Shown here: positions 4,192 through 63,463 of the stretch, piece after piece | Layout: every line of letters starts with the position of its first letter | Numbering within the stretch: the first letter of the stretch is position 1 | Origin: Candidatus Daviesbacteria bacterium | GTDB lineage: Bacteria > Patescibacteriota > Microgenomatia > Daviesbacterales > UBA10151 | DNA length: 64,000 bases | NCBI GenBank assembly: GCA_030699125.1 | Contig: JAUYKM010000009.1 | Coordinates: forward strand, 6,358 to 70,357 | Direction of reading: 5' to 3' | Notes under the pieces: generated by a model | Database searches by the model: none | What the model saw: only the letters and a program-made list of their open reading frames with translations | Told to the model about the DNA's origin: nothing | Made by a program: the position numbers and the translations under genes

Positions 4192-5562
4192 TTAATCTAT
4201 ATGCTGAATTTTTTCAAGTAAATAATCTCTCTTATTCTTTGTAGAATCTTCTAAGACTTCCTCAAAAAGTTTTTGGAGGATCTCTCCCACTTTTGGGCCG
4301 GGCTTAATGTTTAAAACTTTCATCACATCATGGCCATCCACTTTTAAATCAGCAATGGAAAATGGTTTTTTCAAAACTTGTTTAATTTTTTCTTTAAATT
4401 TTTCCATCCTCCATGATGTTTCTCTCTGTGTTCCTCCACCTAATCTATCACCAACTCGAAGAGCCATCATATCTTCGATATTTTCCAACCTCACATTTTT
4501 TATAAAACGCCTGATGGCAGAATCTGTTTGATCTTCATTAACAGAAAACATATGCCACCTGATTAATCTATAGAGCTTTTCAGTTTGTTTTTTAGATAGA
4601 TTAAATCTTTTGGCAATCTTCCTAGCTATATTTGCGCCCACCACATCATGTTGATAGAATGTGACATTGCCATCCTCTTGAGTGGAGACTGTATCAGGTT
4701 TACCAACATCATGGAGCAAGGCGGCAAATTTGGTAAGAGGATCATCTGATGGAGCATATTTGAGAGTAAGTAGGGAGTGTTCGCCAATATCATAGACTCT
4801 GTCATGTTTTGGTCCCTCCTGTTTAAGACCAAAACACCCCTCAAGTTCCGGCAAAATAATTTGCAGTATCCCCGCCTCCCTAAGTTTAACTATACCTATG
4901 TATGAACTGCTAGATGCAAGAATCTTGAAAAGTTCATCCCTGACTCTTTCATTGGCGATTTCTTTTAAAAGATGGGCATTTTTTGTGATAGCTGCAAAAG
5001 TTTTTTTCTCTATATCAAAACCCAATTCTGTGGCAAATCGAATGGCACGAATAAGACGTAGGGCATCTTCTTGGAACCTTTTCTGTGGATCACCCACAGC
5101 TCTAATGATTTTGTCTTTAATATCATCTTGACCATGGAATGGATCAGTTAATTGGATCCCCCGATTAAATCGGGGGATGACAGAGGCGGCAATGGCATTA
5201 ATAGTAAAATCCCTGCGAGCTAAATCTTCCTCAATATTATCTGTCCAGGAAAGCTTATCCGGATGACGGTGATCTTTATATATTCCCTCTTTTCTCATGG
5301 TGGTGATTTCAAAAATTCCATCACCACTATCAAACCCAACTGTACCAAACTTATTATCATAAAATCCCTCAGGAATCACTTTTAAAATCTCCTCCGGTTT
5401 TGCATCAGTGGTAAAATCCCAGTCCTTGACCTGCTTTTTCGTTAAAAGATCTCGGACTGCCCCTCCCACTATGTAAATTTGAAAGTTGGCTTTTTGAAAT
5501 TTATCTAAAATATTTTTTACTCTGGAAGGTAGTGTATAATCGTTCATGATTTCATCATTCAC
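4192..5562 (-). CDS. cca: CCA tRNA nucleotidyltransferase (polymerase beta-type head plus HD domain)
   Basis: IVGGAVRDLLTKK..DWDFTT nucleotidyltransferase head, RRDFTINA motif and a downstream HD-domain LHDVGKP. Confidence 0.85.
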   Translation of the reverse strand: MNDEIMNDYTLPSRVKNILDKFQKANFQIYIVGGAVRDLLTKKQVKDWDFTTDAKPEEILKVIPEGFYDNKFGTVGFDSGDGIFEITTMRKEGIYKDHRHPDKLSWTDNIEEDLARRDFTINAIAASVIPRFNRGIQLTDPFHGQDDIKDKIIRAVGDPQKRFQEDALRLIRAIRFATELGFDIEKKTFAAITKNAHLLKEIANERVRDELFKILASSSSYIGIVKLREAGILQIILPELEGCFGLKQEGPKHDRVYDIGEHSLLTLKYAPSDDPLTKFAALLHDVGKPDTVSTQEDGNVTFYQHDVVGANIARKIAKRFNLSKKQTEKLYRLIRWHMFSVNEDQTDSAIRRFIKNVRLENIEDMMALRVGDRLGGGTQRETSWRMEKFKEKIKQVLKKPFSIADLKVDGHDVMKVLNIKPGPKVGEILQKLFEEVLEDSTKNKRDYLLEKIQHID

Positions 5563-20039: not shown

Positions 20040-20678
20040 TTATTTTTTACTTGGAAAAAACGCTACAATAAGTCTTAGTAAAACCACAAGCGCCGTAAAA
20101 CCAAAGGTAATTTGTCCAACTATTCTTTTGATAACTAAAACTCCATTTTGTGATTCAACTAAGTAAAAATGTAAAACTGCCAAAATTAATGCCAAATATG
20201 CTGTTGATTGGATAATCTTCCAAATCTTTGGACTTAAAGAATTCAAAGCCAGCTTGTTAGAGGTTAAAGTAACTGCCAAAAGTATTACTAAAGAAGCCAG
20301 TCCAGCCAGTAAGCCAAAATATTTGGGACTGGTTGGATCAAATAATTTGGCTAAGTCATAATTAACATAGAAAATATAAATTAGTATGGTATGAGCTAGG
20401 GCAATAAAAAAGCTTAAGATCCCCCAAAATTTGCGGTTGGCTTTTAAAGCATTTAGGGCAGGAAAAAATCTGCTGGCAGGCCCAATAAGTAATGTGAGAG
20501 ACAAAAGAGCAATCGCCAAAAGTCCAGTGGTTTTCACCATTTCCTTTGGATTGAACTGGCCAAAGTTATAAAATTGGAAATACAGCCAGAAAAGAAGAAA
20601 CGGTACCCCGAAATCAATTAATCTTTGAGTCATATTTTTATCTTCAGAGTAATTATAAGGATGAGCTTTATTTTTCAT
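20040..20678 (-). CDS. Ferric-reductase-like (MsrQ/YedZ-type) heme-binding membrane protein
   Basis: Six hydrophobic helices with conserved His in TM (LAHTILIY, LAVLHFYLV). The track ORF extends to 20738, where it would overlap the csoR promoter, so the internal start at 20678 is preferred. Confidence 0.45.
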   Translation of the reverse strand: MKNKAHPYNYSEDKNMTQRLIDFGVPFLLFWLYFQFYNFGQFNPKEMVKTTGLLAIALLSLTLLIGPASRFFPALNALKANRKFWGILSFFIALAHTILIYIFYVNYDLAKLFDPTSPKYFGLLAGLASLVILLAVTLTSNKLALNSLSPKIWKIIQSTAYLALILAVLHFYLVESQNGVLVIKRIVGQITFGFTALVVLLRLIVAFFPSKK

Positions 20679-20731
20679 TTTTATAACTAATCTCAAGGTA
20701 ACATATATGGGCGAATTAATCAAAAACATGC

Positions 20732-20760
20732 TTGACATATCCCCTATGGGGGGATATAAT
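20732..20760 (+). promoter_or_regulatory. Sigma70 promoter (TTGACA-17-TATAAT) with an embedded palindrome ATATCCCCTATGGGGGGATAT, a CsoR operator candidate, leaderless csoR
   Basis: Perfect hexamers. The GC palindrome sits in the spacer. csoR ATG at 20770 is about 9 nt after the -10. Confidence 0.6.
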
Positions 20761-20769
20761 GTATTGGTT

Positions 20770-21039
20770 ATGTATAGACCAAAAAATACACAAGAACGAA
20801 TTACTCATCGGTTACAGATTGCCCAGGGACATCTTAAAAAGGTTCTTAATATGGTGGAAAACGGGGAATATTGTATTGATGTAATCCATCAATCCCAGGC
20901 AGTCCAGGCAGCTTTGAAGGAGGCAGATTCTTTGGTTTTGGAAAACCACCTGAAAGGTTGTGTGGTTGACCATATTAAAAAAGGTGAATCAGATGCGTCT
21001 ATTGCAGAAATCATGAATGTTTTTAAGAAAAACAAATAA
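20770..21039 (+). CDS. csoR: CsoR/RcnR-family metal-sensing transcriptional repressor
   Basis: RLQIAQGHLKKVLNMVENGEYCIDVIHQSQAVQAALKEA...HLKGCV matches the DUF156 CsoR helix bundle, with the Cys-His-Cys ligand positions present. Confidence 0.75.
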   Translation: MYRPKNTQERITHRLQIAQGHLKKVLNMVENGEYCIDVIHQSQAVQAALKEADSLVLENHLKGCVVDHIKKGESDASIAEIMNVFKKNK

Positions 21040-21042
21040 TTT

Positions 21043-21543
21043 ATGAGTGACAAAAAAATTATTATTGGCTTTGTGGTCTTAACCCTTTTAATACTGGGGG
21101 GTGGAGTTTATGTGTTAAGCGCCATCTCTACCAGTCCTACTCAAGTTACTTCCTCACAAAACGCCAAAGTATCTTTAGATGAAAAGACTTATGATTGGGG
21201 TGAAATTCCCTATAGTGGTCCGGATGCCACCAAAACATTTATTATTAAAAATACCGGCACTGATGTATTGAAACTTACCAATGTTAAAACTTCCTGTGCC
21301 TGTACTAATGCCAGAGTCACTATTGATGGCGAGGTGAGTCCCAGCTTTGATATGCATACCACCTCTTCCTGGGTAGGTGAAGTTCCTCCAGGTAAAGAGG
21401 CGCAACTGACTGTTATTTTTGACCAGGATTTTCATGGACCCACCGGAGTGGGAGCGGTAGAGCGTTTGATATCAATTGAGACTAATGATGCAGCCAACCC
21501 AAAATTGGAATTTTTATTGAAAGGAACGGTAGTTAAACAATGA
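21043..21543 (+). CDS. DUF1573-like membrane-anchored protein with a CxC motif
   Basis: N-terminal TM and a beta-rich domain with TSCACTNA. Confidence 0.5.
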   Translation: MSDKKIIIGFVVLTLLILGGGVYVLSAISTSPTQVTSSQNAKVSLDEKTYDWGEIPYSGPDATKTFIIKNTGTDVLKLTNVKTSCACTNARVTIDGEVSPSFDMHTTSSWVGEVPPGKEAQLTVIFDQDFHGPTGVGAVERLISIETNDAANPKLEFLLKGTVVKQ

Positions 21544-22472
21544 AGACAAAGAAGATAAAAGGGATTCTATCTAAAGCCGTGCCTTTGTGGATGGTGTTAC
21601 TGGTAGTTTTAAATTCCACCCTGGTGATGGGTGTAGCTCAATATTATCTGATTAAACAGCAACTTCAGAAAGATATCAAAGAACTTTCTAAGAGTCTAGA
21701 TCCTGCTCAAATGGCGGCTGCATTAAAGCAGGAAGTTTTACCCCAGAAAGGTTATATGACTTCTTTAAAATGGAAGGATTTGGGTAAACAATTGGTGGAG
21801 GCCGGGGCAATTGACAAACAAAAGTATGAACAAATCTTTACCTATCAATCAGATGGGGCAGATCATATGAAATATATGGATGGATCTTGGGATGAGAATA
21901 TCATAATCAACGAGGCAAATGGCCGTTTTTTAGTTAATACTTTTTGGGCCTTGGGGTTGGTTAACAAATCCAAGGTGCTGGATGAGGGACCAATGAGGCA
22001 ACAGGGTATGGATACTGCCAATTTAGCCTCCACTGCCGGCTGGACTTTAGGCTCTAAGGGAGCCATGGAGCTTTACTCCTCAGTCTCCATTATTCCCTTG
22101 ACTGATGAACAGCAGGATTTAGTTAAAAGGATTGCCGAAAACGTTTTCCGTCCTTGTTGCGGCAATTCCACTTACTTTCCCGATTGCAATCACGGCATGG
22201 CAGCTTTAGGTTATATTGAACTGGCAGTTTCAAGCGAGCTTTCGGAAAATCAAATTTATAAAGATCTTTTAGCATTTAATTCCTTTTGGTTTCCGCAAAA
22301 TTATGTGGATATGGCTGTTTATTTTGACAAGCAAGGGACTAAATGGAAAGATGTTGATCCAAAACTGGCTTTGTCCTCTGCTTATTCATCATCTCAAGGC
22401 GCGCAAAGAATAAAACAATCCGTTCAATCTGTTCCCGGGGTTGGTGGAAGCACAGGAGGTTGTGGAACATAA
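21540..22472 (+). CDS. Membrane-anchored Cys-rich hypothetical protein
   Basis: N-terminal TM. CCGNSTYFPDCNHG cluster and a C-terminal GGSTGGCGT tail. Overlapping start and stop with its neighbours. Confidence 0.45.
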   Translation: MKTKKIKGILSKAVPLWMVLLVVLNSTLVMGVAQYYLIKQQLQKDIKELSKSLDPAQMAAALKQEVLPQKGYMTSLKWKDLGKQLVEAGAIDKQKYEQIFTYQSDGADHMKYMDGSWDENIIINEANGRFLVNTFWALGLVNKSKVLDEGPMRQQGMDTANLASTAGWTLGSKGAMELYSSVSIIPLTDEQQDLVKRIAENVFRPCCGNSTYFPDCNHGMAALGYIELAVSSELSENQIYKDLLAFNSFWFPQNYVDMAVYFDKQGTKWKDVDPKLALSSAYSSSQGAQRIKQSVQSVPGVGGSTGGCGT

Positions 22473-23309
22473 ATGGAAAATATCTTTTTTCAAACCTCGC
22501 TGATTGCCGCATTTGTGGCAGGGATGGTAGCCTTATTTGCCCCCTGTTGTATTACCTTTTTATTACCCGCGTATCTTGGCAGCGTTTTTAAGGAAAAAGA
22601 AAAAGTGATTTTAATGACTTTAGTTTTCGGTGCGGGAATTTTTGTCACACTTATGCCGGCAGTTTTAGGAGTGGCTTTGATCTCTAAAGCGCTTTTCCGC
22701 TACCATGATTTTATTTATATTCTGGGTGGGGTAGTTATGATTGGAGTTGCCGTAACCACTTTTTTGGGTATAAAGCTGCCAATGCCAAATCTGCCCGGGA
22801 CAAATATCGGGAGCAGGACAGATGTTTTGTCAATTTTTATATTAGGGATTTTTTCCGGTATCACCAGCGCCTGTTGCGCTCCGGTTTTGATCGGGATTTT
22901 AACTTTGACTTTTCTCTCGCCCAGTTTTTTTGGGGCCATTTTGATAGGAGGAATGTATGTTTTAGGTATGGTAATACCGCTTCTGATTATCTCCATTTTC
23001 CTGTCCGGAAAGATGTCAAAAATGGCTCTTTTAAGGAAACCGTTTGCTGATTTAAATTTTTTTGGAAAAACTTATGTAGTGGTAGTAAGTAATCTTGTGG
23101 CCTCAATAGTATTTTTAGTCACAGGTTTGGCGGCCCTGGGGTTGACAGTTTCGGGCAGGCTTTCTGCTGAAAATATGGATATATTCACCAAAACAATTAC
23201 AAACACATTAAATAATGTAAATGGTATTTTTGGCACAAATCCTCTGCTTAATGTTTTGTTCCTGATTACAGTAATCGCTCTTATTTATTGGGCTGCCAAA
23301 AAGCTGTAA
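22473..23309 (+). CDS. DsbD/CcdA-like polytopic thiol-disulfide membrane protein
   Basis: Two intramembrane Cys pairs (FAPCCITF and SACCAPV) across about 8 TM segments. Confidence 0.45.
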   Translation: MENIFFQTSLIAAFVAGMVALFAPCCITFLLPAYLGSVFKEKEKVILMTLVFGAGIFVTLMPAVLGVALISKALFRYHDFIYILGGVVMIGVAVTTFLGIKLPMPNLPGTNIGSRTDVLSIFILGIFSGITSACCAPVLIGILTLTFLSPSFFGAILIGGMYVLGMVIPLLIISIFLSGKMSKMALLRKPFADLNFFGKTYVVVVSNLVASIVFLVTGLAALGLTVSGRLSAENMDIFTKTITNTLNNVNGIFGTNPLLNVLFLITVIALIYWAAKKL

Positions 23310-23333
23310 GATTAAGTTAAGGGGGTGATAAAA

Positions 23334-23480
23334 ATGATGGGTTATGGAAACTGGGGATATGGCTATAGTGGAATGATGGGTGCAGGTTTTGGGATTTTAG
23401 CAACAGTTTTTTGGCTGGTGATTTTAATTGACCTGATTCTTTTGGGCGTTTGGCTTTGGAAGCAGATTCAGAAGAAATAA
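23334..23480 (+). CDS. 48-aa Gly/Trp/Tyr-rich single-TM mini-protein
   Basis: SD GGGGGTGA lies 6 nt upstream. MMGYGNWGYGYSGMMGAGFG followed by one TM. Not in the ORF track. Confidence 0.3.
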   Translation: MMGYGNWGYGYSGMMGAGFGILATVFWLVILIDLILLGVWLWKQIQKK

Positions 23481-23490
23481 TTAAGGTTTT

Positions 23491-23850
23491 ATGAGTATAG
23501 ATAAAGTTTTAGTTATTATTTTTGGGCTTATCGGAGTAATTTTTACCTATTGGTTCTTTTTGATGAAAAAAGAAAAGGAGGTGGAAGCAGTGGGTGAAGT
23601 GGATATTAAAGTAAGCGGTGGATATTCGCCGGAGGTAATCTCCGTACCTTTGGGTAAAACTACCAGGATAAATTTTTTAAGGACTGATCCAACTGACTGT
23701 TTATCAGAGGTGGTTTTGGGTGATTTTAAAATTAAAAGGCAGTTGCCTTTAAATGAGAAAGTAACAGTAGAAATTACCCCGCAAAAGGCGGGGGCGTTTG
23801 GATATTCATGCGCTATGAACATGTATCATGGCAAGATAATTGTTAAATAA
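23491..23850 (+). CDS. Membrane-anchored cupredoxin-like small protein
   Basis: N-terminal TM. C-terminal motif [16 protein letters not shown], which also recurs at the C-terminus of the 26162..27181 ORF. Confidence 0.5.
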
Positions 23851-23867
23851 GCAGAGCTTGCGATGCT

Positions 23868-26165
23868 TTGCATCTAAATATGGCAGAAATAAAGAAAACA
23901 TTTCCCATAAAGGGTATGTACTGTGCATCATGTGTACGGGTTTTGGAGAAATCCTTAAGTAGAGTTGAGGGTATTTCTAATTGTGTAGTAAATCTGACAA
24001 CAGAGACAGCAAGTGTTACATATGATCCAAAAAAAGTGACAGATAATGATTTGGTATCTGCTGTGGCGAATGTTGGCTACAAAGCAGGGTTGGAGAGTGA
24101 GTTAAAAACAGAAGATCAGCAAAAAATAGAGAAGGAAAAAGAACTAAAAGATTTACGAAATAAAGTTATTATCAGTTTATTTTTGGGGGCATTAATTCTT
24201 TGGGGAAGCTTTCCGGGTCTTATGAATATTGCCCCACTTTTTTTAATAAACTCATGGGTACAACTGCTTTTAGCGATACCGGTTCAATTTTGGGCAGGCT
24301 GGGAATTTTACAGGGCTACAATTCCTGCCCTGCGACACAGAACTGCCAATATGGACACACTGGTGGCCATAGGTACTACCGTTGCTTTTTCCTATTCCGC
24401 TGTCGTGACTATTTTTCCTCAACTGGTGGAAAGTATTGGAGTAAAACCAGAGCCCTACTTTGATGTTTCCACTATTATTATCGGATTAATTTTACTAGGA
24501 AGATATTTTGAAGCCAAAGCTAAAGCAGGTACTTCAGAGGCTATTAAAAAGTTAATAGGTCTGCAGGCTAAAACTGCCAGGGTGGTAAGGAATGGCTCGG
24601 AAGTAGATATCCCGATAGATCAGGTAGTGATTGGAGATACTATCAGGGTCAGGCCAGGTGAAAAAATTTCGGTTGACGGAGAAATTTTAGAGGGTCAGTC
24701 ATCTATTGATGAGTCCATGGTAACAGGAGAAAGTATCCCGGTTGATAAGGTTAAAGGCGATTTGGTAATTGGTGCCACTATCAACAAAACAGGAACCTTT
24801 TTATATAAAGCCACCAAAGTGGGAGCAGATACAATGCTTTCACAAATTATTAAATTGGTACAAGAGGCTCAAGCCAGCAAAGCCCCGATACAAAGATTGG
24901 CTGATTTAATTTCTTCATATTTTGTACCGGTAGTTTTAATTTTGGCCATTGCTACATTTGTAGTTTGGTATGTAATTGGTCCTGCCCCTTCATTTTTGTA
25001 TGGTTTGCTTAATATGGTGGCTGTTTTAATAATTGCCTGTCCTTGTGCCATGGGCTTGGCAACTCCAACAGCTATTATGGTGGGTACAGGAATTGGGGCG
25101 AACAAAGGAATATTGATTAAGGATGCTCAAAGTTTGGAAACTGCTCATAAAATAAACACTGTTATTTTTGATAAAACAGGGACATTAACTAAGGGAAAGC
25201 CGGAGGTGACCGACGTTGTTCCATTCGTCATTGCGAGGAGGAACGCGACGAAGCAATCTTCCAAATCAAGATTGCCACGCGAACTAAAGTTCGCTCGCAA
25301 TGATGTTTTGGTATTAGCAGCATCTTTGGAAAAGGGATCAGAACATTCTTTAGCAGAGGCAATTGTTAATAAAGCCGAGCAAGAAGCACTTAACTTCAGC
25401 AAAGTCGAAGCATTTAAAGCCATTCCAGGGCATGGGGTAGAAGGTATTGTTGATGGGAGAAAAGTGGTTCTGGGAAATAGAAAGTTGCTGGAAAAGAATG
25501 ATGTTGACTTTACTCCGATTATTCGAATAATTGAACAACTGGAAAATGAAGGCAAGACAGTGATGATGTTGACCGTGGATGGGAAATTAGCAGGCCTTAT
25601 TGCTGTGGCTGATACTATTAAAGAGACTGCCAAAGAAGGAGTGGAAGCGCTCTATAAAAAAGGGATAGAGGTAGTTATGATTACCGGAGACAACCAGAGA
25701 ACTGCCAATGCTATTGCTAAAAAGCTGGGTATAAAAAGAGTTTTGGCAGAAGTTTTGCCTGATCAAAAAGAGGCGGAAGTAAAAAAGATTCAGACAGAAG
25801 GAAAGAAAGTAGCTATGGTGGGAGATGGAATAAATGATGCTCCGGCTTTGGCTGCTGCAGATGTTGGGATTGCCATGGGTACTGGAACTGATGTGGCCAT
25901 AGAGTCGGCAGGAATTACCTTGATAAATAAAGATTTAACATCTGTGGTATCAGCAATAGAGCTTTCCAAAAAAACCATGAGAACAATAAAACTAAACCTT
26001 TTTTGGGCTTTTGGTTATAATATTATATTAATACCGGTTGCTATGGGAGCGCTCTATCCATTTTTCCATATACTTTTAAATCCAATCTTTGCTTCAGTTG
26101 CTATGGCATCCAGTTCTATATCTGTAGTTTCAAATTCACTGCTTTTAAAAAGGGTTAAACTATGA
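23868..26165 (+). CDS. copA: Copper-translocating P1B-type ATPase
   Basis: N-terminal [16 protein letters not shown] motif [18 protein letters not shown] and [10 protein letters not shown]. Carries a 78-bp in-frame GC-rich palindromic insertion at 25227-25304. Confidence 0.9.
25227..25304 (+). repeat. Two inverted copies of palindromic mini-element family A inserted in frame in copA
   Basis: GTCATTGCGAGGAGGAACGCGACGAAGCAATC and, inverted, GATTGCCACGCGAACTAAAGTTCGCTCGCAATGAT. Matches 55996-56028 and 56173-56198. Confidence 0.7.
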
Positions 26166-27181
26166 TTAATTTGTGGCTCATATTTATAACCGGTTTAACT
26201 GTTGGGGGCTTAACTTGTCTGGCAGTGCAGGGAGGACTTTTGGCCTCAATTATTGCGGCCAGGGAAGAAGATGATATCGAACGCGGTAACAGGCGTAAAC
26301 ACACACTCTGGGCAACAATTGCCTTTCTAGTAACTAAGTTGATTGTTTATACTTTTTTAGGTTTTATCCTGGGGGCTTTTGGAGGGGCATTAAATATTTC
26401 TCCCAAAGTCCAGATTGCCATGCAATTTTTAGCAGGACTATATATGGCTTTCATTGCGCTAGATTTGTTAAAAGTCCACCCTATCTTTAGATACGTAGTC
26501 ATCCAGCCCCCCAGATTTTTAACCAGGATAGTAAGGAATCAATCCAGGAGTAAGGATCTTTTTGCCCCGGCCGCTTTAGGTGCTATGACAATTTTTATTC
26601 CTTGTGGTACAACTTTGGCAATGGAGGCTTTGGCAATCTCATCCGGTAATGCAATTTTGGGTGCAGCAGTTATGTTTTTCTTTGTTTTGGGCACTATACC
26701 TGTATTTTTTGGGGTGGGTTTTTTAACCACAATATTGGGTGATAATTTTCAGGGCAGATTTTTAAAAATTGCAGGGCTGACTGTACTTTATTTAGGTGTT
26801 ATCTCAGCAAATGGCGCTTTAGTTGCAGCAGGATCACCTGTTAGCTTGCCATCTATAACAATTGACCTAAGTGGCAATGGTAGATATTCAGCGCAGAACC
26901 AGATTGATATTTCCGTTGCACAAAACCCCCAAATTACTATTACATCTTCCGGCTACAGCCCAAACTATATCAGAGTAAGGCAAGGTAAAACAGTCAACTT
27001 AACGCTTAAAAGTATCAATGCTTTCAGCTGTGCTTTAGCTTTTAGGATTCCCTCTTTGGGCATCAGTAAGAATCTGCAGCCAAATGATGTGCAGCAAATC
27101 AGCTTTGTTCCCACTCAACCAGGCCAAATCCCATTTAGCTGCTCTATGGGGATGTATCGGGGGGTGATTGAGGTAATATGA
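26162..27181 (+). CDS. Polytopic membrane protein fused to a C-terminal cupredoxin-like domain
   Basis: About 6 TM with a conserved Cys in TM1 ([11 protein letters not shown]). The C-terminal soluble domain ends in [12 protein letters not shown]. Confidence 0.45.
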
Positions 27182-34561: not shown

Positions 34562-35236
34562 TTATATCAATCTAAACTTAGCATTCTTTTTATATCTTCT
34601 TCTCAAATATTTCTTTTGGGCTCTGGTTGAAAATTTATTCGTTCCCAAAACCGCCTCTTCCTTTTCAAATAATTTTTCAATTTCTGAGAAATCTTGTTTA
34701 AGCCCATCATAAATAAATTTTTCATATTGTTTTTGCGACTTTTTTGTTTCTCCAACCAGACGGATGATATCTTCATCAAGGAAATAAAGCGATTCTTGAC
34801 CCACAGCCTCTCTGATACTGCTATATGGATATTTCATTGGGTCCTTAATTAGCCCTGCTTTGACTGGATTGAGATAAATGTATTGAGAAAGCTGGATAAA
34901 ATAAGGATCGCTTTCAATTAGAATACTTTTAAACCTATTTTGAAAAACAGGACCATAGTGATTATAAGTACGGTTAAAATACATGGAATAACTGGTTGTT
35001 AGGGAGGACATAATTTTTGAGATGGGGATTTTACGAGTATGGATAGAGATATGAAAGTGGTTTGGTATCAGACAAAAAGCGTATATGGAATGGTCATATT
35101 TACTTTTTAAACGATAAAGCTTATTTAAGAAAAAATGATAATCTGCCTCTTTTAGAAATACAGGCTGCTTATTAATACCCCTATTAAAAACATGATAAAA
35201 AGCATTTTCAAAAACAAATCTTGGCCCTCTAGGCAT
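34562..35236 (-). CDS. Y1 HUH tyrosine transposase, IS200/IS605 TnpA-like or REP-associated (RAYT)
   Basis: HUH motif NHFHISI and catalytic Tyr in YIYLNP. Flanked by inverted GGGACGGTCC hairpin repeats at 34529-34553 and 35283-35300. Confidence 0.7.
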   Translation of the reverse strand: MPRGPRFVFENAFYHVFNRGINKQPVFLKEADYHFFLNKLYRLKSKYDHSIYAFCLIPNHFHISIHTRKIPISKIMSSLTTSYSMYFNRTYNHYGPVFQNRFKSILIESDPYFIQLSQYIYLNPVKAGLIKDPMKYPYSSIREAVGQESLYFLDEDIIRLVGETKKSQKQYEKFIYDGLKQDFSEIEKLFEKEEAVLGTNKFSTRAQKKYLRRRYKKNAKFRLI

Positions 35237-49737: not shown

Positions 49738-50508
49738 ATATCCGCAGGTGTCAATACAGATACACCCCAAGGGTGTACATACAATATAAACTTTACTCCT
49801 CCTCCAACAACTGATGTTTTATTAGTTCTAACTTTTGGGCGTATTCCACACGTTCAAGAACAAATTCCTTATAATCTTCGGGGGATTTAAAAAAATTTAG
49901 GATTTCTTCTTTAGCGCAAAAGCCATCTTTTACCAGTCCAACATATTCCGGATATGAAGACCAACGATAATCTTTTAAATCCTTCACTAGAAGTGATGCA
50001 ATCGGGTTTAAGTGAATATAACGTGAGACATGAATTAACTGTTCATCAGATTCAATTAAAACAGCTTTGAATTCCCCCTGTAATAAAGGCCCAACTCTTC
50101 TGTACTTAACATTGTAGTATTTGGTATAGCTATTGCTAAGTTTACTGATAAATTCAGTAATTCCGCCATCTTTAAGTTGTCTAATAAGAAGATGGAAATG
50201 GTTTGGCATTAGACAATAGCAGATAATGTCCACGATTTTTTTGTTTGAATCGGGTTTAATAATAGAATTTGGTGAGAATCTGGAGAATCTTGGCTTGGGT
50301 CCTAATAATTGGTAATAGGTGATCGTCTTAATAAATCTTGAATAATCCCAATTTTTTTCAAATATTCTTCTTTTCTCTACACCTCGGTTATAAATATGGT
50401 AAAAATGACCGTTAACAAATGGAAAAATTCTGGAAGGCATTTGAACCTATCGTACTCTCAATATCCGCAGGTGTCAATACAAAAACACCCCAAGGGTGTA
50501 CATACAAT
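49738..50508 (-). mobile_element. IS200/IS605-like element: a Y1 transposase flanked by 48-bp near-identical direct subterminal repeats carrying a GTACACCC-AA-GGGTGTAC hairpin
   Basis: Repeats at 49738-49785 and 50461-50508 differ at 3 positions. Same-strand hairpins at both ends fit the IS200/IS605 LE/RE architecture. Confidence 0.6.
49793..50440 (-). CDS. Y1 HUH tyrosine transposase (IS200/IS605 TnpA or RAYT-like)
   Basis: HUH motif NHFHLLI and catalytic Tyr in YIHLNP. Paralog of the 34562..35236 gene. Confidence 0.7.
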   Translation of the reverse strand: MPSRIFPFVNGHFYHIYNRGVEKRRIFEKNWDYSRFIKTITYYQLLGPKPRFSRFSPNSIIKPDSNKKIVDIICYCLMPNHFHLLIRQLKDGGITEFISKLSNSYTKYYNVKYRRVGPLLQGEFKAVLIESDEQLIHVSRYIHLNPIASLLVKDLKDYRWSSYPEYVGLVKDGFCAKEEILNFFKSPEDYKEFVLERVEYAQKLELIKHQLLEEE

Positions 50509-55662: not shown

Positions 55663-56031
55663 ATGGGTGAGCGTTTGCATGATTTTTATCAACAACCAGA
55701 ATATCGGGCATATATGTTAAGGGATGAAAGATTTTTCACAGGTGAGGTTGGGTCAGTAGATCTTGAAGGATTAGATTTGAGAAGTCCTTGGGAAAAAGAT
55801 TGGGAGGAATATAACAAGCCAGTAAGACAGTCGGTAGAAGAATTGTTGGATGATGGGCAAGATTTGATGACTATGACTGAAGCAGAAGTTGATCAAGTTT
55901 ATGAGCAAGTCTTAGCTAGAAGATTAGAAATTGGTCATAGACTCTTTCCTTTTGCAAGTCCAGAAGATTTAGGAAGAAGAGCTACTACTCCTGGTGTCAT
56001 TGCGAGGAACTTTAGTTCCGAAGCAATCTAG
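55663..56031 (+). CDS. Hypothetical protein whose C-terminal 12 codons and stop are supplied by a palindromic mini-element
   Basis: The ...GVIARNFSSEAI* tail is encoded by the family-A element at 55996-56031. Confidence 0.4.
   Translation: MGERLHDFYQQPEYRAYMLRDERFFTGEVGSVDLEGLDLRSPWEKDWEEYNKPVRQSVEELLDDGQDLMTMTEAEVDQVYEQVLARRLEIGHRLFPFASPEDLGRRATTPGVIARNFSSEAI
55996..56028 (+). repeat. Palindromic mini-element family A (GTCATTGCGAG-GAACTTTAGTTC-CGAAGCAATC)
   Basis: Inner perfect palindrome GGAACTTTAGTTCC, outer ATTGC/GCAAT arms. Copies at 25227-25304 and 56173-56198. Confidence 0.65.
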
Positions 56032-56047
56032 AGCCTATTTCAAAACT

Positions 56048-56119
56048 GTCATTCCCGCGTATGCGGGAATCCAATTAACAGATTTTATTAAATGGATCCC
56101 TGCCTTCGCAGGGATGACA
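56048..56119 (+). mobile_element. Cargo-less MITE-like element: two family-B hairpins in inverted orientation (GTCATTCCCGCGTATGCGGGAATCCAATTAA ... GGATCCCTGCCTTCGCAGGGATGAC)
   Basis: Same terminal inverted repeats as those flanking the GIY-YIG gene at 63108-63463. Confidence 0.55.
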
Positions 56120-56172
56120 AAAGAGGTTTTGAAATGACTCCTAGATAATGGAGTGATATATTACATGAAATA

Positions 56173-56198
56173 GATTGCTTCGCTACGCTCGCAATGAC
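56173..56198 (-). repeat. Family A palindromic element, inverted copy
   Basis: GATTGCTTCGCTACGCTCGCAATGAC, just downstream of the response-regulator stop. Confidence 0.55.
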
Positions 56199-56205
56199 AA
56201 AAAGA

Positions 56206-56619
56206 TTATTGTGCTGGATTCTGAGGAGGAATGGGTTGGCCGCCGGAGAGGGCGGTTTTTACCTCTGCTACTACTTGTTCCGGGGTATAGGATGCTTTTA
56301 TTAGATAAGCTTGGGCTCCTAACTCAAACCCTTCTTTAATAACCTCTTCCTGTCCTAAATTGGTTAAAAGTATAGTAATCATACGGGAGTTAGGATTTTG
56401 AGTTTTAAATTCCCTAAGAACCTGTAATCCATTCATGCCGGGAAGCATAATATCCAAAAGCAAAAGATCAAAGATTTGATTTTTCAGCTGATTAATCCCT
56501 TCCTGACCATCTGCTGCCACCGCTACTTCATATCCCTCTCTGGTAAGTTGTCTTTGATATAAATCTCTGATGAACGCTTCATCCTCTACCAATAAGATTT
56601 TCTTTTTCTGTGGATTCAT
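56206..56619 (-). CDS. Single-domain response regulator (CheY-like receiver)
   Basis: KKILLVEDE, phospho-acceptor D in LLLLDIMLPGMNG, and a conserved K in the C-terminal AYLIK segment. Confidence 0.8.
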   Translation of the reverse strand: MNPQKKKILLVEDEAFIRDLYQRQLTREGYEVAVAADGQEGINQLKNQIFDLLLLDIMLPGMNGLQVLREFKTQNPNSRMITILLTNLGQEEVIKEGFELGAQAYLIKASYTPEQVVAEVKTALSGGQPIPPQNPAQ

Positions 56620-63107: not shown

Positions 63108-63463
63108 ATTAGATTATGTCATTCCTGCGAATGCAGGAATCCAATTAACAGATGTATTATTATGTCTATATTTTGGCAAGTGGAATAAATGGCACTTTGT
63201 ATATAGGTGTTACAGATAATTTAGTCAGAAGGGTTTGGGAACATAAACATGATTTGGTAGAAGGATTTACCAAAAAGTACGATATACATGATCTTGTATA
63301 TTATGGGCAACACCAAGACATTAATGAGGCCATTTTAAGAGAAAAACAAATGAAGAAGTGGAAAAGATATTGGAAAATAAAACTGATTAATAAGATGAAT
63401 CCAAAATGGAAAGATTTATATATTTCTATTGTTTAATTGGATCCCCGCCTACGCGGGGATGAC
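63108..63463 (+). mobile_element. 356-bp element with terminal inverted repeats carrying a GIY-YIG nuclease gene as cargo
   Basis: Left end GTCATTCCTGCGAATGCAGGAATCCAATTAA. Right end TTAATTGGATCCCCGCCTACGCGGGGATGAC. Each end is itself a hairpin. A cargo-less copy lies at 56048-56119. Confidence 0.55.
63152..63436 (+). CDS. GIY-YIG nuclease family protein (YhbQ/UPF0213-like)
   Basis: YYVYILASGINGTLYIGVTDNLVRRVWEHK is a GIY-YIG core. 94 aa. Confidence 0.75.
   Translation: MYYYVYILASGINGTLYIGVTDNLVRRVWEHKHDLVEGFTKKYDIHDLVYYGQHQDINEAILREKQMKKWKRYWKIKLINKMNPKWKDLYISIV

Follow-up and report, generated by a model that had tools for sequence, protein, structure and literature searches.

The closest described relatives of the sequence reported here, a 78-bp block inside the copper-exporting ATPase gene copA of an uncultured groundwater Candidatus Daviesbacteria bacterium (Microgenomates; Candidate Phyla Radiation, CPR), are short tagged hairpin repeats, a family that is itself already known. 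CGTC-tagged repetitive extragenic palindromes (REPs) were surveyed by Di Nocera et al. (2013, PMC3733652), who equated CGTC-1 with dRS3 and with the Rickettsia palindromic element (RPE) RPE-6 of R. conorii, and CGTC-4 with RPE-4. Copies inside genes were mostly dimers encoding 20-30 residues, the variety of proteins hit was held to argue against functional constraint, and tyrosine-transposase genes were never flanked by these REPs (PMC3733652). In Neisseria, the repeat NTS (CGTCATTCCCGCGMAVGCGGGAATCYRG, in which ATTCCC-N8-GGGAAT forms the dRS3 core; Chenal et al. 2025, PMC11893778) was generalized in 2025 to "Ssn-related motifs" (SRM). SsnA, a protein of 94 residues with GIY-YIG as its sole domain, binds the hairpin only as single-stranded DNA (ssDNA), and its cut falls a few nucleotides upstream, reportedly about 3 nt 5' of the tag. 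An SRM lies near 71% of ssnA homologs, and 42% are bordered by such motifs at both ends. In Neisseria, transformation is modulated by NTS units, which are seldom intragenic (2% in N. meningitidis; PMC11893778).

We analyzed a 64,000-nucleotide stretch of contig JAUYKM010000009.1 (hereafter the window), in which the block occupies positions 25227-25304. Our reading, which we consider likely, is that two convergent CGTC-REP/NTS/SRM units make up the block as a non-autonomous doublet that became fixed in the surface loop linking the P domain of CopA to its N domain, is carried as a translated passenger, and owes its spread to Ssn-type nucleases. New with respect to the published work are the CPR hosts, a recurrent site at the copA hinge that is occupied by several stem variants, and a widespread, cross-phylum variant that the published motif misses.

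A hairpin doublet in the copA frame and its relatives in the window

Read directly from the window, the block consists of GTCATTGCGAGGAGGAACGCGACGAAGCAATCTT, a spacer and AAGATTGCCACGCGAACTAAAGTTCGCTCGCAATGAT (Table 1). A sequence-only reading of this DNA had described two inverted palindromic units that leave the copA frame unbroken, and both points stand: the arms are perfectly inverted over an outer 10 nt (25228-25237/25294-25303) and an inner 8 nt (25253-25260/25268-25275), and the copA open reading frame (ORF) stays open through the block, this being the one of the three forward frames that is stop-free across it. Two details of that reading needed adjustment. The term "GC-rich" applies insofar as the block (48.7% GC) exceeds the remainder of copA (39.2%), a modest difference given that 8% of the other 78-nt copA windows reach the same value. 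The insert does amount to 26 residues (454-479), but it begins 12 residues past DKTGTLT and not directly after it. One minus-strand frame across the insert is also stop-free because the insert is palindromic, and an antisense ORF that crosses it (25145..25633, minus strand, 162 codons) is probably spurious.

The host protein, 100% identical to one annotated from a 360-kb Candidatus Daviesbacteria contig, aligns from end to end with A. fulgidus CopA (E = 5e-199), and its catalytic motifs are all intact, with CPC, DKTGT and GDGxND among the residues invariant in a 60-sequence alignment. Structural modelling, which the sequence-only reading had proposed for the position of the insert, places residues 454-479 as coil between the P-domain strand 446-452 and the first N-domain helix 477-488 in an AlphaFold2 model with a mean predicted local distance difference test score (pLDDT) of 70.5. 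The score falls below 50 at residues 456-472, and the loop joining the two domains is, according to the model, probably disordered. At Rfam gathering thresholds the window contains two tRNAs only; a permissive Rfam scan of 25100-25420 returned only a chance microRNA match (E = 0.49), and a full-text literature search with GTCATTGCGAG returned unrelated primer sequences only.

The pattern TCATTGCGAG-N4-30-GCAATC matches the window four times (25228-25258+, 25270-25303-, 55997-56028+ and 56173-56197-) and never in 100 dinucleotide shuffles of the window, which bears out the further copies that had been reported near 55996-56198. We refer to these four units as A-type, and to a second set of NTS-like hairpins in the window as B-type. 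The apical mini-hairpin CGAACTTTAGTTCG of the right copA unit is common only to the unit at 55996; likewise, the 12-nt apex GAACTTTAGTTC occurs only in these two units and is absent from the orthologous loci L002 and L007 (L numbers denote loci from other assemblies) and from 1.32 Mb of other loci, which may be one sign of sequence exchange among copies within the genome. Nested within the intergenic A-type pair is a 71-bp inverted B-type pair (GTCATTCCCGCGTATGCGGGAATCCA ... TGGATCCCTGCCTTCGCAGGGATGAC). On its left inner side this pair has exactly the flank, AATCCAATTAACAGAT, that the ssn element at 63118-63463 has; because this flank is common to both, the 71-bp pair looks like a deletion derivative of an ssn-type element. 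The pair is framed by an AT-rich inverted repeat, CCTATTTCAAAAC / GTTTTGAAATGAC, which itself carries a minus-strand GTCAT tag.

Units of the family are short stem-loops (20-50 nt) on a shared plan: a (C/T)GTCAT tag, which gives the unit its orientation, is followed by a stem starting with AT, then by a loop or inner stem that varies, and finally by ATC. In the window, the tag reads C-GTCAT in the left copA unit, C-ATCAT in the right one, where it is mutated, and T-GTCAT in all others, and the five B-type stems differ in sequence by compensatory changes such that all remain perfectly paired. The (C/T)GTCAT tag, a hairpin opening with ATT or ATC and a trailing ATC are features that the window units have in common with NTS and SRM, and the B-type units are near-identical to NTS (GTCATTCCCGCG...GCGGGAATCC). 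The A-type units of copA differ from NTS in having a 5-bp outer stem, an internal loop and an inner stem that varies. The published SRM motif is HGTCWYN(0-2)YYVSBRHN(0-5)WNVSBRGN(0-2)RNCYNB; with its last two positions removed, it matches three B-type units, against 0.2 matches expected in the window. Taken together, tag, stem and layout place the copA units, as far as can be judged from sequence, in the CGTC-tagged REP/NTS/SRM superfamily.

Comparison with the CGTC-tagged REPs points the same way, since both are tagged short palindromes, often inverted dimers, able to lie within genes, where the dimers encode 20-30 residues, and without a tyrosine transposase. They differ in that the 2013 survey encountered mainly alphaproteobacterial examples, whereas the host here is a CPR bacterium and the A-type unit extends over more than ten phyla, and in that the partner GIY-YIG gene was not known in 2013. 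The analogy with Rickettsia elements drawn in the sequence-only reading thus holds in a specific form, as RPE-4 and RPE-6 fall into the same CGTC-tagged superfamily by the equation made in PMC3733652. The 2025 account of NTS and SRM (PMC11893778) makes no mention of CPR, in-frame inserts or RPEs.

RPE-1, which measures about 100-150 bp, and other in-frame MITEs (miniature transposable elements with inverted repeats) resemble the copA insert in lying in frame within conserved functional genes, at surface-exposed sites. The window units are shorter (26-37 nt), and RPE-1 is not known to be related to the copA units in sequence. Rickettsia RPEs are recognized as in-frame segments of conserved genes that are missing from orthologs, a description that fits both the copA insert and a second one, in the gene for the CCA-adding enzyme.

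In the latter gene, one B-type unit, whose 10-bp stem pairs perfectly, encodes VIPRFNRGIQ within the loop between RDFTINAIA and DPFHG, where solved CCA enzyme structures are six residues shorter. Most orthologs read INAIALSxDGKIVDPF, and about 14 of 120 carry SVIP[x]3GIQ at the same loop. In-frame units are therefore a general trait of the lineage and not peculiar to copA. Daviesbacteria CCA enzymes (P0245, P0265, P0290, P0299, P0301 and others) also contain palindrome-like peptides in several loops, including HLRGEETDVT..HLGGE, TSKVGSDSFEV and SAISYQLSDKKQKKSDDRRLTT, which suggests that further, different small repeat families may insert in frame.

Table 1. Features of the window and inserts at orthologous copA loci (coordinates are window positions; the basis for ortholog inserts is given under Remarks)
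Feature	Coordinates	Strand	Remarks
copA, Cu+-exporting P1B-type ATPase, host gene	23868..26165	+	765 codons
Left hairpin unit of copA insert, A-type	25227..25260	+	Tag (C)GTCAT; outer stem ATTGC/GCAAT; centre variable; ATCTT
Spacer CCAAATC separating the inverted units	25261..25267	+	7 nt
Right hairpin unit of copA insert, A-type, inverted	25268..25304	-	Tag mutated: ATCAT, not GTCAT
A-type unit	55996..56029	+	Forms last 12 codons and stop codon of ORF 55663..56031
A-type unit, inverted partner of 55996-56029	56172..56198	-	7 nt off start of response-regulator ORF 56206..56619(-)
Inverted B-type pair, NTS/SRM-like	56048..56118	.	71 bp, nested within A-type pair
B-type unit, left flank of ssn-like gene	63118..63143	+	
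ssn-like gene, single-domain GIY-YIG nuclease	63152..63436	+	94 residues; PF01541 match 5e-12
B-type unit, right flank of ssn-like gene	63438..63463	-	Begins 2 nt past stop codon
Single B-type unit	5153..5182	-	10-bp perfect stem; in frame in CCA-adding enzyme gene 4192..5562(-)
Y1_Tnp (PF01797) ORF, IS200-like	34562..35236	-	224 residues; E 2.5e-11; NF047646 68.6 bits
Y1_Tnp (PF01797) ORF, IS200-like	49793..50440	-	215 residues; E 1.8e-7; NF047646 52.5 bits
Ferric-reductase-like membrane protein	20040..20738	-	copA neighbour
CsoR-type metal-sensing repressor	20707..21039		copA neighbour
DUF1573 protein			copA neighbour
Cupredoxin-like protein	23491..23850		Upstream of copA
Membrane protein	26162..27181		Downstream of copA
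copA insert, L002 and L007			A-type pairs; DNA
copA insert, L003			B-type pair; DNA
copA insert, L005			Stem ATCCTGAG...GAAGGAT; DNA
copA insert, L006			B-type unit + ATCCTGAA...TTCAGGAT unit; DNA

Presence and absence at the CopA loop

We aligned the best 120 CopA homologs (71-100% identical) and compared the DNA of seven orthologous loci. The closest orthologs (82% identical, 733-735 residues) lack the insert in both protein and DNA: the nearest relatives read VTDVV-G-DVLQLAAS where the window has VTDVVPF[26 aa]VLVLAAS, and the "empty" alleles L001 and L008 read GAT GTT GTT GGG GAT GTT TTG where, in the window, CCATTC and the element replace GGG. Spacing from DKTGTLT to SEH is 69 nt in the empty Daviesbacteria alleles, 144 nt in the window and 90 nt in more distant CopAs, the canonical length. 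The net gain of the window CopA is therefore 25 residues relative to its nearest empty relatives, or 18 relative to the canonical 30-residue spacing, so that the clean 26-residue indel anticipated by the sequence-only reading was found as regards the empty orthologs and not as regards its exact size.

At least six extra residues are present at the P-N loop in about 40 of the 120 orthologs. Their loop peptides correspond to several stem variants of the same kind of unit (VIARS..TKQS..PRFARDD; VIPANAGIQ..DSRLRGND; SVILSE..ESKD; ILKQVQDD / MLNQVQHD; LVSEAHPES..WTSQDD), and in some orthologs the same kinds of peptide are found at further CopA loops, near residues 239, 566-568 and 640. Five filled loops were confirmed in DNA (Table 1), each as GTCAT-stem-loop-stem-ATC, with stems that differ from one another yet are internally complementary. 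This variety of stem types at a single site argues for several insertion events, at least by the sequence of the units. A neighbour-joining tree combined with a Fitch count gave 48 changes, a figure to be taken only as a rough pointer to repeated gain and loss, as the tree is weakly resolved and the peptide-based classes misfile some canonical loops.

Metagenomic CopAs retrieved in a scan were for the most part distant relatives (46-72% identical) whose spacing had the canonical 90 nt; just 3-4 sites were filled, all in frame, a sample too small to test frame bias. One of these metagenomic proteins, L150, has canonical spacing and reads ...GSLDFARDDILAL, with the FARDD end typical of A-type inserts; the sequence may be the remnant of a decayed unit.

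These observations bear on whether an insertion took place at all. P-N linker length varies among P1B-ATPases, and one could imagine a natively variable loop that was turned palindromic by mutation or template switching, or an artefact of assembly. Such an origin is scarcely credible in view of the 10-nt tag and 9-nt tail, which are identical to those of intergenic copies in the window and of units in other phyla; moreover, related inserts occur in independent assemblies (L002, L007), and the contig that carries the block is 360 kb long. We regard both the no-insertion and the artefact reading as effectively refuted.

Many close relatives of the window CopA have no insert of any kind, and where one is present neither its sequence nor its length is conserved. 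Together with the like units in loops of the unrelated CCA-adding enzyme, the disorder of the modelled CopA loop and the argument against constraint from the variety of proteins hit (PMC3733652), this makes it unlikely that the insert has been kept for a function, be it as an ssDNA mark through which Ssn would curb recombination or transformation around copA (the role proposed for NTS in Neisseria; PMC11893778), as an mRNA hairpin that tunes copA, or as an adaptive surface loop. A functional role would nevertheless agree with the filling of about one-third of the orthologs by several unit types, with the effect of NTS on transformation in Neisseria (PMC11893778), and with the predicted fold of the 90-nt region, which beats shuffled sequences both as DNA (z -3.3) and, strongly, as RNA (z -4.0; -32.5 kcal/mol).

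The surroundings of copA form a copper-resistance neighbourhood (20040-27181; Table 1), and the gene order repressor-cupredoxin-copA is also found in L002, L005, L007 and L008.

A candidate partner nuclease and the spread of the units

The window element at 63118-63463 has the complete unit-ssn-unit layout, with inverted NTS-like hairpins on both sides of a gene for a 94-residue single-domain GIY-YIG protein, as described for NTS/SRM and SsnA. Assignment of this gene as ssn-like is based on its PF01541 match, the protein length and 48% identity to an Ssn protein associated with A-type units. For the A-type itself, linkage was seen at four independent loci: units bracket Ssn homologs on both sides in L074 (a Planctomycetota metagenome-assembled genome), L209 and L219, and degenerate units lie beside an Ssn homolog on one side only in L229. 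Gene layout and protein similarity thus make a small Ssn-family GIY-YIG nuclease the likely partner enzyme of the hairpin units.

The sequence-only reading had instead pointed to two genes of the RAYT (REP-associated tyrosine transposase)/IS200 type as possible mobilizers. Two PF01797 ORFs are indeed present and have the REP-associated tyrosine transposase family as their best NCBIfam match, but both fall short of its cut-off of 80 bits (NF047646; Table 1). The inverted doublet is REPIN-like in its layout, and REP/REPIN systems resemble the present units in their short hairpins, conserved 5' tetranucleotide and many copies. However, REPs carry a GTAG tag where the window units have (C/T)GTC. 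RAYT genes are also flanked by REPs, whereas out to 260 bp from each end of both Y1 genes there is no hairpin unit and no inverted repeat rich in GC, the flanks holding only AT-rich, low-identity inverted repeats. As CGTC-tagged REPs never flank tyrosine-transposase genes (PMC3733652) and the units described here flank GIY-YIG genes instead, we consider mobilization by the Y1 transposases very unlikely.

Beyond the window, an exact 20-base pattern located the A-type unit in at least 120 loci of species-representative genomes, distributed across more than ten phyla, confirming that the motif is not confined to copA. Hosts among the matches listed include Alpha- and Gammaproteobacteria, Desulfobacterota, Chloroflexota, Bacteroidota, Cyanobacteria, Zixibacteria, Planctomycetota, Patescibacteria, Helicobacter and Sporomusa. 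C or T precedes GTCAT in 163 of 171 such units (C 106, T 57), adjacent units converge in 31 of 37 pairs, as in copA, and 37% of the long centres contain a stem of at least 4 bp, compared with 12% of shuffles. Although 27 of the 171 units lie inside long ORFs, this count was set aside, since GC-rich genomes abound in chance ORFs. A-type units also occur in at least 120 IMG/VR contigs of viral class (L238-L357), some of which (L252, L273, L283 and L314) have 4-6 copies each; within these listed loci, a search for ssn linkage gave one Ssn-like ORF and no unit flanking it. Phages or prophages may carry A-type units between phyla.

The explanation that we favor, a doublet spread in connection with Ssn, would operate as follows. 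An Ssn-type nuclease would bind the hairpin in ssDNA and cut just 5' of the tag, after which host repair or copying would establish the unit at a new site; copies within one genome would go on to exchange sequence. The copies to survive selection would be those in a permissive loop, with an open frame and a length divisible by three. The doublet may owe its survival in copA to a length divisible by three, to its position in the one stop-free frame and to the variable length of the loop, the peptide then being a tolerated passenger of 26 extra, probably disordered residues. Its arrangement of unit, short spacer and inverted unit would be what remains once the GIY-YIG gene is lost from an element like that at 63118-63463.

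Several observations weigh against this explanation. The SRM motif as published has no match in the window, and A-type units never match it in either its full or its shortened form. No A-type-flanked ssn gene is present in the window, and the window Ssn shares only the 48% identity given above with its A-associated counterpart. No target-site duplication is visible in the flanking sequence of any of the four window elements; this also sets them apart from classical, IS-derived MITEs of the DDE type, with which they share inverted ends but not flanking direct repeats. Every A-type copA insert has the odd right arm CCACGC (AGATYGCCACGC..TTCGCTCGC), and because this arm is common to all of them, a single old insertion with later losses is inseparable from repeated insertion of the A-type. 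Moreover, transposition by Ssn was offered as a hypothesis only and never demonstrated (PMC11893778), and translation of the copA insert is predicted from the open frame alone.

Implications for the lineage and the repeat family

We also entertain, tentatively and as a rather doubtful extension, that the CPR hairpin units constitute an active self-targeting system, in which Ssn would nick at an intragenic unit and repair from other copies would follow, such that units would be swapped, nested or lost in place. A few permissive loops, among them the turn in the CCA enzyme and the P-N hinge of CopA, would then be recurrent landing pads that give rise to hypervariable peptides. Such activity is hinted at because at least five stem variants occupy the one copA site, because the apex GAACTTTAGTTC is common only to a copA unit and an intergenic unit, and because the empty alleles, which are seven residues short, look like imprecise excisions.

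The A-type unit lies outside the published motif, yet viral contigs and members of more than ten phyla carry it, which means that present counts of SRM are too low. The present data link three apparently separate literatures, those on Rickettsia RPE-4 and RPE-6, on CGTC-tagged REPs, and on the NTS/SRM-Ssn system of 2025, and extend them to CPR. With the copA locus, natural presence/absence alleles are at hand for asking whether Ssn nucleases mobilize their hairpins. The units are also a likely source of spurious "hypothetical" ORF calls and, lodged in loops of housekeeping proteins such as CopA and the CCA-adding enzyme, a source of lineage-specific insertions in these small genomes.

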